From positions 2,048,001 to 2,112,000 of the forward strand of contig CAWHFW010000005.1 of assembly GCA_963828735.1 (NCBI GenBank): a DNA stretch of 64,000 nucleotides, read 5' to 3'. A program made the position numbers and the translations under genes. Position 1 is the stretch's first letter; every line of letters starts with the position of its first letter. This document shows positions 14,389 through 43,966 of this stretch, in pieces. Under the pieces are notes generated by a model. That model saw only the letters and a program-made list of their open reading frames with translations, searched no databases and was not told the origin of the DNA. The DNA is from an uncultured Gemmatimonadales bacterium (lineage in GTDB: Bacteria; Gemmatimonadota; Gemmatimonadetes; Gemmatimonadales; GWC2-71-9).

Positions 14389-14561
14389 AATTCACCACGG
14401 AAGCACGGAGGACACGGAGGTCGGACGGAGTTCTTAGCGACGTACTTCTCATGCTCTGATGTGTACTTGGGGTGCCCCGCCACGCCACACCAAAAACATT
14501 GCTGCAGTGACCTTGCAGTTTCCGTGCGGCCTCCGTGTCCTCCGTGCTTCCGTGGTGAATT
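14389..14561. repeat. Empty inverted-repeat pair (family 1)
   Basis: Perfect 32-bp IR AATTCACCACGGAAGCACGGAGGACACGGAGG (14389-14420) with its reverse complement at 14530-14561; 109-bp spacer. Confidence 0.92.
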
Positions 14562-37799: not shown

Positions 37800-38567
37800 G
37801 TGCAGCCGCTTGCCGCAATGACTTGGGAGGAGACGCGGGACTCCACCGGTCCCAGGTCGGTCGCCATCCTGCCGGTGGGGGCGGTCGAGGCGCATGGCCC
37901 GCACCTGCCGCTGGAGACCGACGTCGTCATCGCCCTGGCGATGGCCCGTGCGGGCGCGGCCCGGCTCGACGCCCGCGGCCAGCGGGCAGTGGTCCTTCCG
38001 CCGCTGAGCTACACCGCCGCCCCTTTCGCCCATGGCTTCGCTGGAACGCTCTCCCTTCGCCCGGAAACGGTCTCGGCGACGGTGCTGGACATCGCCCGCA
38101 GCCTGGCCTGGCATGGCTTCGGAGTGATGGCCATCGCCAACGCGCATCTGGACCCGACGCACCTGGCTTCGCTGGAGGCGGCCGTCAACGCGATCCGGCG
38201 CGAGGTCGGGCTGCCTGTCGCATTTCCCAATCTGACCGACAAACCGTGGGCTCTCCGACTGAGCGAGGAGTTCAAGAGCGGTGCCTGCCACGCCGGCCAG
38301 TTCGAGACGTCGATCATGATGGCCGAGCGTCCTGAGCTGGTGCGGGACGCGATACGGACCGCCCTGCCGCCCAACCCGGCGTCGCTCTCCCGCGCCATCC
38401 GCGACGGCAAGCTGAGTTTCGAGGAGGCGGGCGGAGCCAGGGCGTATTTCGGCTTCCCGGGGCAGGCCACCGCCGAAGAGGGCCGCGCGACGATCGAGGT
38501 GCTCGGCGCGATCCTCGACGAATCGGTGCAGGCCGAGCTCGGCGCCAGGGCGGGGCAGCCGACATGA
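37800..38567 (+). CDS. Creatininase-family amidohydrolase
   Basis: MTWEE, LPVGAVEAHGPHLPLETD, NAH, HAGQFETS; alternative start 37818. Confidence 0.9.
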   Translation: MQPLAAMTWEETRDSTGPRSVAILPVGAVEAHGPHLPLETDVVIALAMARAGAARLDARGQRAVVLPPLSYTAAPFAHGFAGTLSLRPETVSATVLDIARSLAWHGFGVMAIANAHLDPTHLASLEAAVNAIRREVGLPVAFPNLTDKPWALRLSEEFKSGACHAGQFETSIMMAERPELVRDAIRTALPPNPASLSRAIRDGKLSFEEAGGARAYFGFPGQATAEEGRATIEVLGAILDESVQAELGARAGQPT

Positions 38568-39742
38568 GCTCCTTGTCCGGCCGGATCGCGGTGGTGACTG
38601 GTGCCGGCCGCGGGATCGGAGCGGCCACCGCCCGCGCGCTCGCCGAGGCCGGTCTGACGGTCGTGGTCGCGGCCCGCACCCGCGACCAGATCGAACGGCA
38701 GAGCGCCGAGTTGCGGGCGGCCGGCGGCCAGGCCAAGGCCGTGGCCTGCGACGTGAGCAGTGAGGCCGGCGTGGAGGCCCTCGCGCGCGAGGCATCGGAG
38801 CTGGGCCCGGTCGCGATCCTGGTCAACAACGCCGGCGCGGCCGCCTCGATGCCGATCGCCCGTACCTCGCTCGACGAGTGGAATCGCCTCATCGCGGTCA
38901 ACGCGACCAGCGCCTTCCTCTGCACCCGGGCCTTCCTTCCGGGTATGCTCGAGCGAAAGTGGGGGCGAGTGGTAAACGTAGCGTCGACCGCGAGCTTGAG
39001 AGGCGGCAAGTACCTGGCGGCGTACTCGGCGGCCAAGCACGCGCTCCTGGGCCTCACCCGCTCGGCCGCGGCGGAGGTGGCGGGGACGGGGGTGACGGTG
39101 AACGCGGTCTGCCCCGGCTTCGTGGATACCGAGATGACAGCCGAGACCGTGGACCGGATAGCGGCCAAGACCGGCCGCACCCGGGAGGCCGCGCTGGCCG
39201 CGGCCCTGGCCTCGGAGAACCAGCCGAGGCTGATCACGCCGGAGGAGGTAGCGGCCGCCGTCGTATCACTGTCCACCGCCGCCGTGGGCCATCCTCCCAA
39301 CGGGGAGGCCATGATCCTGGACGGGAGGGACCCGATGAGCGGACGGTTCGCGATCATCAATCCCGAGGAGCTCGGCGCACCCCGAGGTTTTAACAACGGG
39401 CTGCTGGCCCAGGCCGGCGGCAGGACGCTGTTCATTGCGGGACAGACTGCACGTGCGACCTCGGGCCAGGTACCGGCTGCCGACCTCGTGTCCCAGTTCG
39501 ACACCGCGCTCGGCAACGCGTTGGCCGTGCTGCGTGAGGCCGGCGGTGCGCCGGGCGACATCGGTCGGTTCACGATCTACGTCACCGACATGGCGCAGTA
39601 TCGTGCCAGCCTCAAGTCATTGGGCGAGGCGTATCGACGCCGCATGGGCACCCACTTCCCGGCGATGGCGCTGGTGGAGGTGAAATCGCTGGTGGACCCG
39701 CAGGCGGTGGTGGAGATCGAGGCGACGGCGGTGCTGGGCTAA
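38564..39742 (+). CDS. SDR oxidoreductase in frame with a RidA-family domain (fusion, or two genes split at 39335)
   Basis: TGAGRGIG, NNAG, YSAAK; then PRGFNNG...IAGQ...FPAMALVEV...VEIEATA. Confidence 0.85.
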   Translation: MSSLSGRIAVVTGAGRGIGAATARALAEAGLTVVVAARTRDQIERQSAELRAAGGQAKAVACDVSSEAGVEALAREASELGPVAILVNNAGAAASMPIARTSLDEWNRLIAVNATSAFLCTRAFLPGMLERKWGRVVNVASTASLRGGKYLAAYSAAKHALLGLTRSAAAEVAGTGVTVNAVCPGFVDTEMTAETVDRIAAKTGRTREAALAAALASENQPRLITPEEVAAAVVSLSTAAVGHPPNGEAMILDGRDPMSGRFAIINPEELGAPRGFNNGLLAQAGGRTLFIAGQTARATSGQVPAADLVSQFDTALGNALAVLREAGGAPGDIGRFTIYVTDMAQYRASLKSLGEAYRRRMGTHFPAMALVEVKSLVDPQAVVEIEATAVLG

Positions 39743-39763
39743 GACCGAGATCCCGATACTGAG

Positions 39764-40324
39764 ATTCACCACGGAAACACGGAAGTCACGGAAACCGAAC
39801 GGCAGCGGGGAGCTAGAGCAGTATTCGTTTTATGCCGTGGGGGAGAGCGTCGACGTTGAAGTTCATCAGAAGGCCGGAGGTGACTCTGAGGAGACGCAGG
39901 TAGGTCATCAGTTGAGCCGAATGGATCGGCAGGAGTTTGTCCACGGACTTGAGTTCGAGAACGAGACAGCCTTCGATCAGGAAATCAATGACGTAACTCT
40001 TTGCGATCTGTTTTCCCTTGTATTCGAGAGGTACGGACATCCGACTATGATACGTGATGCCTTGTAGTTCTAGTTCGTGGCACAAGCAGGCGTGATAGCT
40101 GGACTCAAGAAGGCCCGGGCCGAGATGGCGATGTACTTCAACTGCCGCGCCTATGGCCTTTGCGCTTATTCGATTGGTCGGATGCTCGATGAGTCCCACG
40201 GCCCCTCCCGAGCAACGAAACGTAAGAGGCGCGTGTCGAGGCTCACCACCAATTTCCCTTCGTAGGTGTCGAAAATGGAAATGACCACACTTCCTTCCGT
40301 GTCTTCCGTGTTTCCGTGGTGAAT
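39764..40324. mobile_element. Candidate element: GxxExxY gene bounded by family-1 inverted repeats
   Basis: Arms 39764-39793 and 40295-40324 match 29/30 (ATTCACCACGGAAACACGGAAGWCACGGAA). Confidence 0.7.
39813..40199 (-). CDS. GxxExxY protein (PD-(D/E)xK nuclease-like)
   Basis: VHRHLGPGLLESSY, IDFLIEGCLVLELK, HSAQLMTYL, GLLMNF; GGAGG RBS before GTG; visibly AT-richer than neighbours. Confidence 0.93.
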   Translation of the reverse strand: MGLIEHPTNRISAKAIGAAVEVHRHLGPGLLESSYHACLCHELELQGITYHSRMSVPLEYKGKQIAKSYVIDFLIEGCLVLELKSVDKLLPIHSAQLMTYLRLLRVTSGLLMNFNVDALPHGIKRILL

Positions 40325-40374
40325 TCAACGGGTGCTTGGTGGGACGGGTCGAACCTGGTCGAACGAGCGCACTG

Positions 40375-41175
40375 ATGACCCTGAGCCCCAAGTCCTTCGC
40401 CTACACCGTCGACCCGGCGACCGCCGTCGCGACCATCACGCTCAATCGCCCCGACCGGTTGAACGCGCTCACCTTCGAGGTCTACACCGAGCTGAGGGAC
40501 ACGTTCCGCGCCCTCGACGCCGAGCCCGGCGTCCGCGCCGTGATCATCACCGGTACCGGCCGCGCCTTCTGCAGCGGGGGGGACGTCGAGGACATCATCG
40601 GCGTCCTGTTCTCGAGGGACGCGGCGGGTCTGCTCGAGTTTACCAGACTCACCGGCGATCTCATCCTCTCCATCCGCCAATGTCGGCGGCCGGTCGTGGC
40701 GGCCCTCAACGGAACCGTGGCGGGCGCCGGCGCCGTGATCGCGGCCGCCAGCGACATCCGGATCGCGGCCGAGGGCGCCAAGATCGCTTTCCTCTTCTCG
40801 CGGGTCGGCCTGACCGGGGCCGACATGGGCGCGGCGTGGCTGCTTCCGCGAATCGTCGGCCTGGCGCATGCGAGCGAGCTGCTCCTGCTGGGCGACTTCA
40901 TCACCGCCCAGCGCGCCGCCGATATCGGCCTGTACAACCGGGTGGTGCCCGCCGAGCGGCTGATGGCGGAAGCGACCGACGTCGCGGTCCGCCTGGCGCG
41001 GGGCCCCTCGGCGGCCCATGGCGTCACCAAGCAGTCGCTGAACGAGGAAGCGGCGATGGACCTGGTGTCCGCGATCGAGCGGGAAGCGCGGGTTCAGGCG
41101 GACTGCATGCGTCACCCGAACTTCCGCGAAGCCTACGAAGCCTTTCGCGCCAAGCGCGAACCGAAGTTCGAATAG
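40375..41175 (+). CDS. Enoyl-CoA hydratase (AbmC-like)
   Basis: LNALTFEVYTEL, AFCSGGDVEDII, GADMGAAWLLPRIVG. Confidence 0.9.
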   Translation: MTLSPKSFAYTVDPATAVATITLNRPDRLNALTFEVYTELRDTFRALDAEPGVRAVIITGTGRAFCSGGDVEDIIGVLFSRDAAGLLEFTRLTGDLILSIRQCRRPVVAALNGTVAGAGAVIAAASDIRIAAEGAKIAFLFSRVGLTGADMGAAWLLPRIVGLAHASELLLLGDFITAQRAADIGLYNRVVPAERLMAEATDVAVRLARGPSAAHGVTKQSLNEEAAMDLVSAIEREARVQADCMRHPNFREAYEAFRAKREPKFE

Positions 41176-41177
41176 GC

Positions 41178-42317
41178 ATGCCCGACACGCGATTGATCCG
41201 CGCCTTCCTCGAGCCGCAGCACGGGTCGCTCGCCGCGCGGGCGGGCGACTTCGCGATGGCGGAGATCGCTACCCGTCCGGAACCGGTTGACGATGACGCA
41301 GCCAGGACCGAGGCGCGGGCTCTCCTCGGACTGCTCGGTGCGGGAGGCTGGCTCCAGCCGATCTTCGACCTCGATCTTCGCGGCTGCTGCCTGACGCGAG
41401 AGGCACTGGGAGAGGCATCACCGCTGGCCGACGCGGTGTTCGCGCTGCAAGGGCTCGGCACCACACCGATCCTGCTGGGCGGCACGCCGGCGCAGAAGGA
41501 ACGCTGGCTCGGCCCGATCGCCAGGGGAACGGTCATGACCGCCTTCGCGATGACCGAGCCGGAGGCAGGGTCGGACGTCACCGGGATTGCGACGACCGGC
41601 CGGCGCGAGGGATCGGGCTACGTGCTCAACGGGGTGAAGACGCTGATCTCGAACGCCGGCATCGCCGATCTCTATGCCGTGTTCGCCTCTACCGACGGGA
41701 GCAAGGGGGCCAAGGGTATCAGTTGCTTCCTGGTGCCGGCCGACGCGCCCGGGCTCCGATTCGTGGAGCCGCAGGTGCTGAGCGCCCCGCACCCGTTAGG
41801 CGAGATCGCGTTCGAGGACTGTCAGGTGCCGGCGGACGCGATGCTCGGCAGCGAGGGACGCGGCTACGCGCTCGGCCTTGCAACCCTCGACCGGCTGCGG
41901 CCCACGGTGGCCGCGGCTGCGTGCGGGATGGCGACTCGCGCGCTCGCCGAGTCGCTGGTCCACGTGAAGCGGCGACAGCAGTTCGGGAAACCGCTGGCCC
42001 AGTTCCAGCTGGTGCAACAGAAGCTGGCCCGGACCGCCACCGATCTCGCGGCCGCCCGGCTCCTGACCTATCGCGCCGCCTATGAGAAGGACCAGGGACA
42101 GGAGCGGATCACGAGCGAAGCAGCCATGGCGAAGTCCTTCGCCACCGAGATGGCGCAGCGGGCGGTGGACGACGCGGTGCAGCTCATCGGCGGGCGCGGG
42201 GTACTGGCCAGCCATCCGGTGGAACGGCTGTACCGCGCGGTCCGGGCGCTCCGGATCTACGAGGGGACGACGGAGATCCAGCAGCTGATCATCGCGGGGG
42301 AGCTGCTCAAGCAGTAG
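41178..42317 (+). CDS. Acyl-CoA dehydrogenase (AbmD-like)
   Basis: FAMTEPEAGSDV, ISNAGIAD, APHPL, RALRIYEGTTEIQ. Confidence 0.92.
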   Translation: MPDTRLIRAFLEPQHGSLAARAGDFAMAEIATRPEPVDDDAARTEARALLGLLGAGGWLQPIFDLDLRGCCLTREALGEASPLADAVFALQGLGTTPILLGGTPAQKERWLGPIARGTVMTAFAMTEPEAGSDVTGIATTGRREGSGYVLNGVKTLISNAGIADLYAVFASTDGSKGAKGISCFLVPADAPGLRFVEPQVLSAPHPLGEIAFEDCQVPADAMLGSEGRGYALGLATLDRLRPTVAAAACGMATRALAESLVHVKRRQQFGKPLAQFQLVQQKLARTATDLAAARLLTYRAAYEKDQGQERITSEAAMAKSFATEMAQRAVDDAVQLIGGRGVLASHPVERLYRAVRALRIYEGTTEIQQLIIAGELLKQ

Positions 42318-42336
42318 TCCGGGAGCCGATCCATGG

Positions 42337-42465
42337 ATTCACCACGGAAACACGGAAGGCACGGAAGACGGCCGCGGAAAACCGGCAGGACTGTGTGGGT
42401 GTGCTGTTCCACCCTCAATCTTTCCTCCGCACTCCCTCCGTGTCTTCCGTGTTTCCGTGGTGAAT
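42337..42465. repeat. Empty inverted-repeat pair (family 1)
   Basis: Arms 42337-42366 and 42436-42465 match 28/30; 69-bp spacer. Confidence 0.9.
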
Positions 42466-42514
42466 ACCTCGAGGACATAGATTCAGATCGCCGAGGCACT
42501 CGCGAAGCAACGCT

Positions 42515-43966
42515 ATGTGGCACCCCGACCCCTTCGTGAAGCACCCTATCCCGGCGACGCATCCGCCCACCGCGGCGGAGGCGGCCCGCTCGCTCTGGTT
42601 CAGCCCCCTCCGCTCCGGCCGGCTCCAGCTGGAGGAGCGCACCTGGGTGCCGGCCATGGTACCCTGGCGGGCCACCGATGACGGGCTGGTCACGCCGGAG
42701 GTTCTGGCGTGGTACGAGCGCTTCGCGCGCGGACAGCCGGGGGCGCTCGTGGTCGAGGCCACCGGCATCCGGGACATCCCCAGCGGACCGCTCCTACGGA
42801 TCGGACACGATCGCTTCACCAGCGGCCTGGCGGAGCTGGCACGCACCGTCCGCCAGGCGAGCGGCGGCCGGACCCGCCTGTTCATCCAGGTCATCGACTT
42901 TCTCCGGATCCGCCGCCGGCCCCAGCCGGTGCGATACTTCCGGGAATTCCTGGAAATCACGGATCGGCACCGAGCCATCCTACCTGGCTCCGACGACGCG
43001 ATCCGTGAGGCGCTGGCGCGATTGCCGGAGGCCGAGTGGCCCCGATTCCTCAGCGAGCGGGAGCTCGAAAGCCTGCAGTTCGGCGAGCGGGAGCGGGTCA
43101 CCGACACCACGCTCCCTCACATCCGCGAGCTGCCGCGGGTCCTGCCGGAACTGTTCGCTGAAGCGGCGGAGCGCGCCGAGCAGGCGGGGTTCGACGGCGT
43201 GGAGCTGCACTACGCCCACGCGTATACCGTGGCGTCGTTTCTCTCCGCGCTGAACCAGCGGGATGACGGCTACGGTGGGTCCCGTGCCGATCGGGTGAAG
43301 TTGCCGCTCGAGGTCTACCGCGCGGTTCGCGCCGCGGTGAGCGATCGGTTCGTGGTGGGATGCCGGTTCCTGGCCGAGGAATGCATTCCTGGAGGCTACA
43401 CTGCAGAGGACGCAGCGTGGTTCGGCGCCGAGTTCGCGCGCGCCGGGATGGACTACCTCTCGCTCTCTCGCGGAGGCAAGTTCGAGGATGCCAGGCAGCC
43501 GCGAATTGGCTGGGCACGATACCCGTACACCGGGCCCAGCGGTTACGAGTGCATGCCGACCGTGCGGTCCGACCAACGCGGACCGTTCGGCCGCAACCGC
43601 GCGGCCACCCGCGCCGTGCGGGACGCGGTGCGTGCGGCGGGATGCAACACGCCGGTGGTGCTGTCGGGCGGCGTTTCGACCTTCGAGCAGGCCGAAGACC
43701 TGCTTCGGGCCGGCGACGCGGACATTATCGCCTCGGCCCGGCAGAGCTTGGCGGACCCCGACTGGTTCCGGAAGCTGAGGCTCGGCCGGGGCGATGAGGT
43801 CCGACGCTGCGTGTTCACCAACTACTGCGAGGGCCTGGACCAGGTGCACAAGCCGGTGACCTGCAAGCTCTGGGACCACACCGATCTGGAGGGTGAGGAT
43901 ACGCCTTTGACGCCCGACGGTCGGCGGAGGCTGGTGGCGCCGGCGTGGGAGCCCACCACCCGGTGA
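42515..43966 (+). CDS. NADH:flavin oxidoreductase (Old Yellow Enzyme family)
   Basis: AGFDGVELHYAHAY, FLSALNQRDDGYGG, ARQSLADPDW, C-terminal CxxxNxC...C. Confidence 0.88.
   Translation: MWHPDPFVKHPIPATHPPTAAEAARSLWFSPLRSGRLQLEERTWVPAMVPWRATDDGLVTPEVLAWYERFARGQPGALVVEATGIRDIPSGPLLRIGHDRFTSGLAELARTVRQASGGRTRLFIQVIDFLRIRRRPQPVRYFREFLEITDRHRAILPGSDDAIREALARLPEAEWPRFLSERELESLQFGERERVTDTTLPHIRELPRVLPELFAEAAERAEQAGFDGVELHYAHAYTVASFLSALNQRDDGYGGSRADRVKLPLEVYRAVRAAVSDRFVVGCRFLAEECIPGGYTAEDAAWFGAEFARAGMDYLSLSRGGKFEDARQPRIGWARYPYTGPSGYECMPTVRSDQRGPFGRNRAATRAVRDAVRAAGCNTPVVLSGGVSTFEQAEDLLRAGDADIIASARQSLADPDWFRKLRLGRGDEVRRCVFTNYCEGLDQVHKPVTCKLWDHTDLEGEDTPLTPDGRRRLVAPAWEPTTR

Follow-up and report, generated by a model that had tools for sequence, protein, structure and literature searches.

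Predicted GxxExxY nucleases are paired with inverted tandem-unit repeats across bacterial phyla

Introduction

Inside a co-directional operon of an uncultured Gemmatimonadales bacterium lies a short gene on the opposite strand, bracketed by near-identical inverted repeats. Is this a mobile element, cargo trapped between repeats that spread by other means, or the enzyme of a repeat system of its own? We addressed this question in a 64,000-nt stretch of the genome (contig CAWHFW010000005.1, positions 2,048,001 to 2,112,000; hereafter the window) and in homologous loci of other genomes. A sequence-only reading had taken the gene for a candidate autonomous member of an undescribed mobile or REP-like system, arranged like RAYT/REPIN but served by a PD-(D/E)xK protein. 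The protein belongs to PF13366, a family listed as of unknown function with multiple transfers in the accessible part of PMC3424549.

The cassette and its protein

The gene (39813..40199, minus strand) encodes a 128-aa predicted PD-(D/E)xK nuclease and lies between a downstream arm (39764..39793, plus strand), composed of the head ATTCAC and three CACGGAA units, and an upstream arm (40295..40324, minus strand) that is 29/30 identical to it, both pointing inward. The 30-nt arms are 97% complementary and 501 nt apart, compared with 26 nt at 73% for the next-best inverted repeat in the surrounding 1.5 kb, and in the 64-kb window 6 sites match the 22-nt arm head at up to 3 mismatches, against 0.00 expected from 100 shuffles. 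The GTG start at 40199 is preceded by GGAGG within a 5′ leader inside the cassette (40200..40294, minus strand), which may hold a promoter; a promoter consensus scan found none on the gene's strand, and Rfam returned no family at E up to 0.1 over 39300-43000. GC content is 0.527 in the gene versus 0.708 and 0.698 in its neighbours, and the longest direct repeat immediately outside the arms is 2 nt. The arms, the antisense and AT-richer gene and the lack of a visible target-site duplication are thus as first described.

The plus-strand neighbours are a short-chain dehydrogenase (SDR)+RidA ORF, enoyl-CoA hydratase (PRK08258), acyl-CoA dehydrogenase, flavin oxidoreductase, a salicylyl-CoA 5-hydroxylase-like gene and a tryptophan 2,3-dioxygenase-like gene, which we take to be an anthranilate operon. 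Short-chain dehydrogenase and RidA (PF01042) domains are fused in a single ORF at 38564-39742, and the salicylyl-CoA 5-hydroxylase-like gene (PRK08255; 43945-46222) is split across two frames near profile position 308, reflecting either a pseudogene or an assembly error. RNA contigs, which give neither strand nor level, contained a 180-nt piece within the GxxExxY gene in one of four runs. Among metagenome contigs from four studies searched at 85% likeness, near-identical cassette pieces occurred in three runs and no joint excising the cassette was found, an absence that contigs cannot prove. A lone joint between arms carried 21 other letters and a 24-letter side and was taken as another organism's gene-less doublet.

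The protein matches TIGR04256 (134 bits, cut-off 35) and PF13366 (132 bits), over residues 10-126; these are the only Pfam and NCBIfam matches, cover the whole protein and, with the G29-E32-Y35 motif, place it above the curated cut-off in the GxxExxY/PDDEXK_3 family. Across 137 aligned sequences G29, E32, D72 and K84 are invariant, position 82 (E82 here) is E or D, and Q96 and Y100 recur in 136 and 133. The QxxxY motif links to RecB-type nucleases. A predicted model (pLDDT 95) has a PD-(D/E)xK layout, which we take as the predicted fold. Its top fold match is Cas4 SSO0001 (Foldseek E 1.4e-3; VIA Z 7.7, rmsd 4.9, 101 aligned). BpuSI ties with it, and MGME1, AddAB and RecE come next. No fold match reached Foldseek E ≤0.001 or Z ≥8, and a PDB sequence search with the 137-row profile gave no match at E up to 1. 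Since the fold matches are all weak, we treat a Cas4/RecB-like identity and a preference for single strands as leads: Cas4/RecB-type nucleases are weakly indicated as the nearest fold relatives, and the matches hint at a single-stranded substrate.

The protein shares the E...D...ExK core with Cas4/RecB-type nucleases (PMC5704561), and a bioRxiv paper, in its accessible part, mentions a CRISPR tool that labelled a GxxExxY gene cas4. At 128 aa, however, it lacks the four-cysteine Fe-S module of Cas4 (the best cysteine column among the 137 sequences reaches 64%, the next 28%), and the weak Cas4 match is tied with a restriction enzyme domain. A homodimer prediction scored 0.00 and was given no weight. 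The closest homologues of the window's protein are Gemmatimonadales records, and dN/dS is 0.10-0.17 in seven pairs that include the window's gene; two other pairs were left out when ungapped comparison left frame, and one pair was saturated.

Arms around GxxExxY genes across phyla

In the genomes drawn, the PF13366 family turned up in 53 of 151 from Gemmatimonadota, 67 of 121 from Bacteroidota, 24 of 151 from Pseudomonadota and 34 of 61 from Chloroflexota. We gathered 161 loci, mainly the best-scoring match per genome and therefore not a random sample, and kept 146 after removing 9 duplicates, 2 partial genes and 4 with short flanks. A motif-free inverted-repeat score of at least 14 was reached at 77 of the first 118 loci, compared with 3 of 219 windows shifted by 1.1 kb. 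Arms were then defined as a head near TTHAC followed by CRCRRAN units every 7-11 nt, facing inward. Inward arms lay on both sides at 79/146 loci versus 2/274 shifted controls, and on either side at 115/146 versus 14/274; 31 of the 146 had no arm under this motif rule. Because the rule was drawn from these same loci, we tested it on 29 fresh Chloroflexota loci, one of which was dropped for a short flank: both-side arms occurred at 12/28 loci and 0/52 controls, and either-side arms at 22/28 and 3/52. The enrichment of arms around GxxExxY genes that the original comparison with RAYT/REPIN called for is therefore present. Gene-bearing pairs span 412-706 bp, and the gene lies between inward arms in bacteria of at least six phyla, the link extending to proteins 25-30% identical.

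Some loci depart from the consensus arrangement. Two Myxococcota loci (L066, L067) have inverted arms with a different unit, AGAAGATCA, outside the CRCRRA rule, and arms at L023, L029 and L030 are likewise atypical. The upstream arm often lies at or just past the likely start codon (several loci, for example L003, L008, L156 and L165), which makes the repeat part of the translated N-terminus.

The arms comprise sixteen unit types. Of the 79 loci with both arms, 67 have the same unit upstream and downstream (mean 8.8 and maximum 17 when shuffled), and on a protein tree of 146 rows and 120 columns, with many forks unresolved and 115 rows unit-labelled, the unit changes 51 times, compared with 79 (minimum 72) for within-phylum shuffles. 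Unit position 7 changes 9 times versus 33 when shuffled. Phyla are mixed on the tree (24 changes among the 115 rows), and the unit therefore tracks the protein, not the host. The best residue-unit covariation, between residues 120-122 and 66-67 and unit position 7, cannot be separated from the effects of clade and alignment gaps. That much of the unit-protein co-phylogeny can come from physical linkage alone would suit a gene that is passive cargo, captured as a spacer between doublets spread by another host or element enzyme; the persistence of the link over proteins 25-30% identical and six phyla speaks against such capture.

Gene-less doublets in the source genome and beyond

The source genome has one GxxExxY gene and eight arms, which form four inward pairs. 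Three of the pairs, of 99, 171 and 129 bp, are gene-less; two of these lie in the window and had gone unnoticed in the earlier reading, and one lies elsewhere in the genome. The doublet at 14390..14560, with CACGGAA/CACGGAG units, sits between thiolase-like and enoyl-CoA hydratase-like ORFs (names from translations), and that at 42337..42465 sits between the acyl-CoA dehydrogenase and flavin oxidoreductase genes. The latter folds as a single long hairpin (-41.7 kcal/mol, z -8.4) and is missing at the same junction in four genus mates with gene order kept. A lone arm folds at 0 kcal/mol each. Two source-genome doublets have a common 15-nt spacer word, which recurs in a genus mate's doublets, and we conclude from the common word that doublets were copied together with their spacers.

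Doublet number follows the gene. In the 151-genome draw of the phylum, where related genomes are not independent, at least five three-unit arms were present in 30 of the 53 gene-bearing genomes and in 3 of the 98 others; in the two largest families the corresponding counts were 17/27 versus 2/48 and 10/21 versus 1/10. Arms reach 199 per genome, and 23 of the 53 gene-bearing genomes have fewer than five. Among the three gene-lacking, arm-rich genomes, one has a frameshifted GxxExxY gene; G132 and G127 (98% and 100% complete) carry 14 and 16 arms, and no GxxExxY gene was found in them. Arms form inward pairs in 8/8 cases in the source genome, 82 of the 100 listed in G037 and 62 of 83 in G166.

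G166 carries two genes, with CACAGAG and CACGGAA arms, and by eye its two main doublet families carry these same units. Because arm counts track gene presence and the doublet families of G166 match its genes' units, we propose action in trans. This match fails in G037 and G102, whose most frequent doublet unit is not one of those adjoining their resident genes. Also beside a gene, at locus L078 (G152, contig C107, 3969-5143), a GxxExxY gene is followed by a long doublet array, like the BIME-type clusters beside RAYT genes.

These populations bear further on passive capture. The two arm-rich genomes without the gene favour it, as does the gathering of other repeat types in the same intergenic spaces. 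Yet by eye the only long pairs in G166 (2 of 31) are its two GxxExxY genes and the longest among 41 listed pairs in G037 is its GxxExxY gene, with no other cargo in the long pairs of either genome; moreover, 43 ORFs adjoining arms in three arm-rich, gene-poor genomes fall in unrelated families only, none occurring twice. We regard passive capture as improbable. GxxExxY is instead likely the trans-acting enzyme of a widespread nuclease-plus-repeat system, with gene-less doublets as its likely spreading units.

Residence and rearrangement

Fifteen genus mates carry the orthologous operon. A GxxExxY gene occupies the same site in one of them; a gene-less doublet directly precedes the hydratase gene in three, the gene-bearing mate among them; in most, the site holds a short-chain dehydrogenase gene or what remains of it; one has a compact junction and two have unrelated hairpin repeats. 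The gene at the window's site is common to three species with 70-75% protein identity, and both relatives that carry it there keep arms, so the armless relatives that would have spoken against the proposal did not appear. More broadly, grouping 150 loci by their flanks gives 98 groups, which is a maximum because the flanks are short; among them are groups of 12, 10 and 8 species per site. Paralogues within a genome are 26-75% identical (10 genomes), with no near-identical copies; matches occur in 8 of 72,556 plasmid records and in none of 50,697 phage records. Target duplication at 111 isolated pairs (51 short, 60 long) showed no excess over mismatched-pair controls, and direct repeats at the source genome's four pairs, whose element ends are not exactly known, are 2-4 nt.

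The GxxExxY gene is thus a long-retained resident at fixed chromosomal sites, and purifying selection together with this retention suggests a host benefit. An autonomous IS-like element, with the 561-bp unit moving itself and the doublets as its MITEs, would account for the terminal inverted repeats, the low GC, the 98 flank groups, the different clades found at one site and the mixing of phyla on the protein tree; it is at odds with the absence of near-identical paralogues, the site held in common by three species, the lack of target duplication beyond controls at short and long pairs alike, and the rarity on plasmids and absence from phages, and we consider it very improbable. The part of the sequence-only reading that made the gene an autonomous mobile element is accordingly not supported, while its RAYT/REPIN-like arrangement is upheld by arm enrichment and by the relatives' arms. 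In the accessible part of PMC5581495, a resident profile of this kind is reported for RAYTs, not for insertion sequences.

At fixed sites the cassette and its arms change. At one 8-species site the gene points one way in six species and the opposite way in two, with arms at both borders; a tree of the flanks rejects a single clade for the two flipped species (AU p 0.014), and hence at least two flips occurred. Both orientations are also present at a 12-species site. This inherited site of 12 loci has five units (CACAGAG, CACGAAG, CACGGAG, CGCAGAG and CGCAAAG), which means that arms change in place, and at another site the genes are only 36% identical and have different units. Inversions between inverted repeats of 30-45 nt can occur without a nuclease.

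Between two genomes about 94% identical, of which about 130 kb each were compared, array length varies at four orthologous arm arrays. One doublet is present in only one of the two, where by eye about 185 bases stand in place of about 35 unrelated bases and there is no duplication. From this one clean polymorphic site we infer a replacement mechanism. At another site in the pair, unrelated repeat types are swapped for each other.

Other repeats occupy such spaces. Hairpin repeats starting GTCA or TGTCA, which presumably resemble known REP/SRM types, lie at L032, L037 (RidA-hydratase gap), L045 (hydratase-dehydrogenase gap) and L231 (near 6751), suggesting that several repeat systems compete for the same intergenic spaces. 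Runs of other tandem units (GCTAACA/GCTGACA, CCTTACCGC, ATTGTTC and AGGGAAT), some of them in inverted pairs, lie at L045 and L038 after the acyl-CoA dehydrogenase gene, L219 and L231. Two more pair classes, GTTGCTYN and MTYCTGA, are in print (PMC2700814). Such further tandem-unit runs and pairs may be the partners of other small enzymes.

Comparison with known systems

The system works like RAYT/REPIN and Ssn/SRM and is a member of neither. As in the accessible parts of the RAYT/REPIN literature (PMC3116915, PMC5581495), a gene is flanked by its own repeat class; gene-less, extragenic inverted doublets fold as hairpins, have conserved ends and variable spacers of conserved length, and form tandem arrays; and genomes hold several divergent genes, not recently duplicated, each with its repeat flavour, chromosomal and rare on plasmids. 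The enzyme, however, is a predicted PD-(D/E)xK protein here and an HUH/Y1 tyrosine transposase there, the cassette occurs here in both orientations at fixed sites, and the arm is a run of non-palindromic 7-nt units, whereas a REP is a short palindrome that forms a hairpin. Because a lone arm does not fold into a hairpin, it falls outside the strict definition of a REP, and the REP comparison carries over to the inverted hairpin doublets but not to the arm itself.

Ssn/SRM offers a second parallel, as described in the accessible part of PMC11893778: a small single-domain nuclease gene is flanked on both sides by a genome-dispersed repeat (42% for Ssn/SRM, 54% for GxxExxY), repeat variants are paired with protein variants, and the enzyme is hydrolytic, here by prediction. 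SsnA differs in its GIY-YIG fold (cd10448), the window's protein matching only the PD-(D/E)xK family over its full length; SRMs form hairpins individually; and Ssn activity is proven whereas that of GxxExxY is predicted. Compared with insertion sequences that have MITEs, only the terminal inverted repeats are found here, with neither target-site duplication nor near-identical copies.

SsnA, flanked by its repeats, restricts transforming DNA in that same account, and it thereby gives weight to the alternative that GxxExxY proteins recognise arms without spreading them, through SsnA-like cutting of arm-bearing single-stranded DNA, which would gate incoming DNA or recombination, or as a regulator, with doublets spreading otherwise. 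The host benefit suggested by purifying selection and fixed-site retention fits this alternative, and so does the earlier interpretation of such pairs as regulator binding sites by Aklujkar (2009; PMC2700814). Invariant catalytic residues argue against a binding-only role, and a non-spreading protein leaves unexplained why doublet number tracks the gene and why doublet families match resident genes' units. We hold this alternative to be unlikely, though less so than passive capture; Ssn-like gatekeeping is compatible with the data behind the trans-acting, repeat-spreading enzyme that we prefer, and one protein could play both parts.

The same 2009 study reported 21 opposite-strand pairs of three tandem TCTCCGTS[Y] units in G. 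metallireducens, read as presumed IHF/HU-type binding sites with no partner gene named. This unit is the reverse complement of the CACGGAG unit described here. Its sole long pair, I219, has no gene listed inside; at 438 bp it falls within the 412-706 bp range of gene-bearing pairs, and by eye its printed inner ends translate to ELTDLIIG and LKEGIKRIIF-stop, which look like typical GxxExxY ends. A 24-nt pattern for this long pair had no match in metagenome contigs, and the gene call thus remains a by-eye reading. No paper linking GxxExxY to these repeats was found in the open-access literature searched, and the unit words are absent from the main text of PMC3733652. Within that literature the system was undescribed as regards the gene-repeat link, the repeat pairs themselves being in print.

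Discussion

Our account starts from what the sequences show: how the cassette is built, the joint occurrence of gene and doublets, the agreement of arm unit with protein clade, the conservation of catalytic residues, the gene's long persistence at fixed chromosomal sites, and a cassette lying in either orientation at two sites. The sequences make it fairly probable, in our judgement, that the tandem units are recognised by the protein, which cuts at an arm or close to it, and that host recombination repair is then templated by another arm. Its binding sites would be CRCRRAN units, probably in single-stranded form or within the hairpin of a doublet, and the predicted nuclease would nick or cut the arm itself or DNA close by. 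Since PD-(D/E)xK hydrolases are unable to rejoin DNA, completion would fall to host recombination repair, with another arm serving as template. Such repair could place copies of doublets in intergenic spaces, replacing what was there and causing no target duplication, keep a locus's two arms alike, alter array lengths, and occasionally flip or swap the gene cassette.

This is a real, widespread nuclease-repeat system that belongs in kind with RAYT and Ssn but uses a third enzyme fold and a repeat grammar unlike theirs. A broader interpretation, which we advance at somewhat less than even confidence, is that GxxExxY proteins, alongside RAYT and Ssn, evolved independently as a third class of enzymes that propagate repeats. 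They would be minimal 128-aa PD-(D/E)xK nucleases that read a small 7-nt tandem-unit code with clade-specific preference, spreading hairpin doublets and flipping their cassette by cut-and-repair, not transposition. Other small nucleases may pair likewise with the other tandem-unit pair classes in these intergenic spaces. With a predicted substrate written beside each GxxExxY gene, function is directly testable with oligonucleotides. If this interpretation is true, REP-like doublet populations arose with three unrelated enzyme folds, which bears on how repeats spread without a ligating transposase, and the protein clades, paired as they are with 16 or more unit variants, would constitute a natural panel of very small sequence-specific nucleases.
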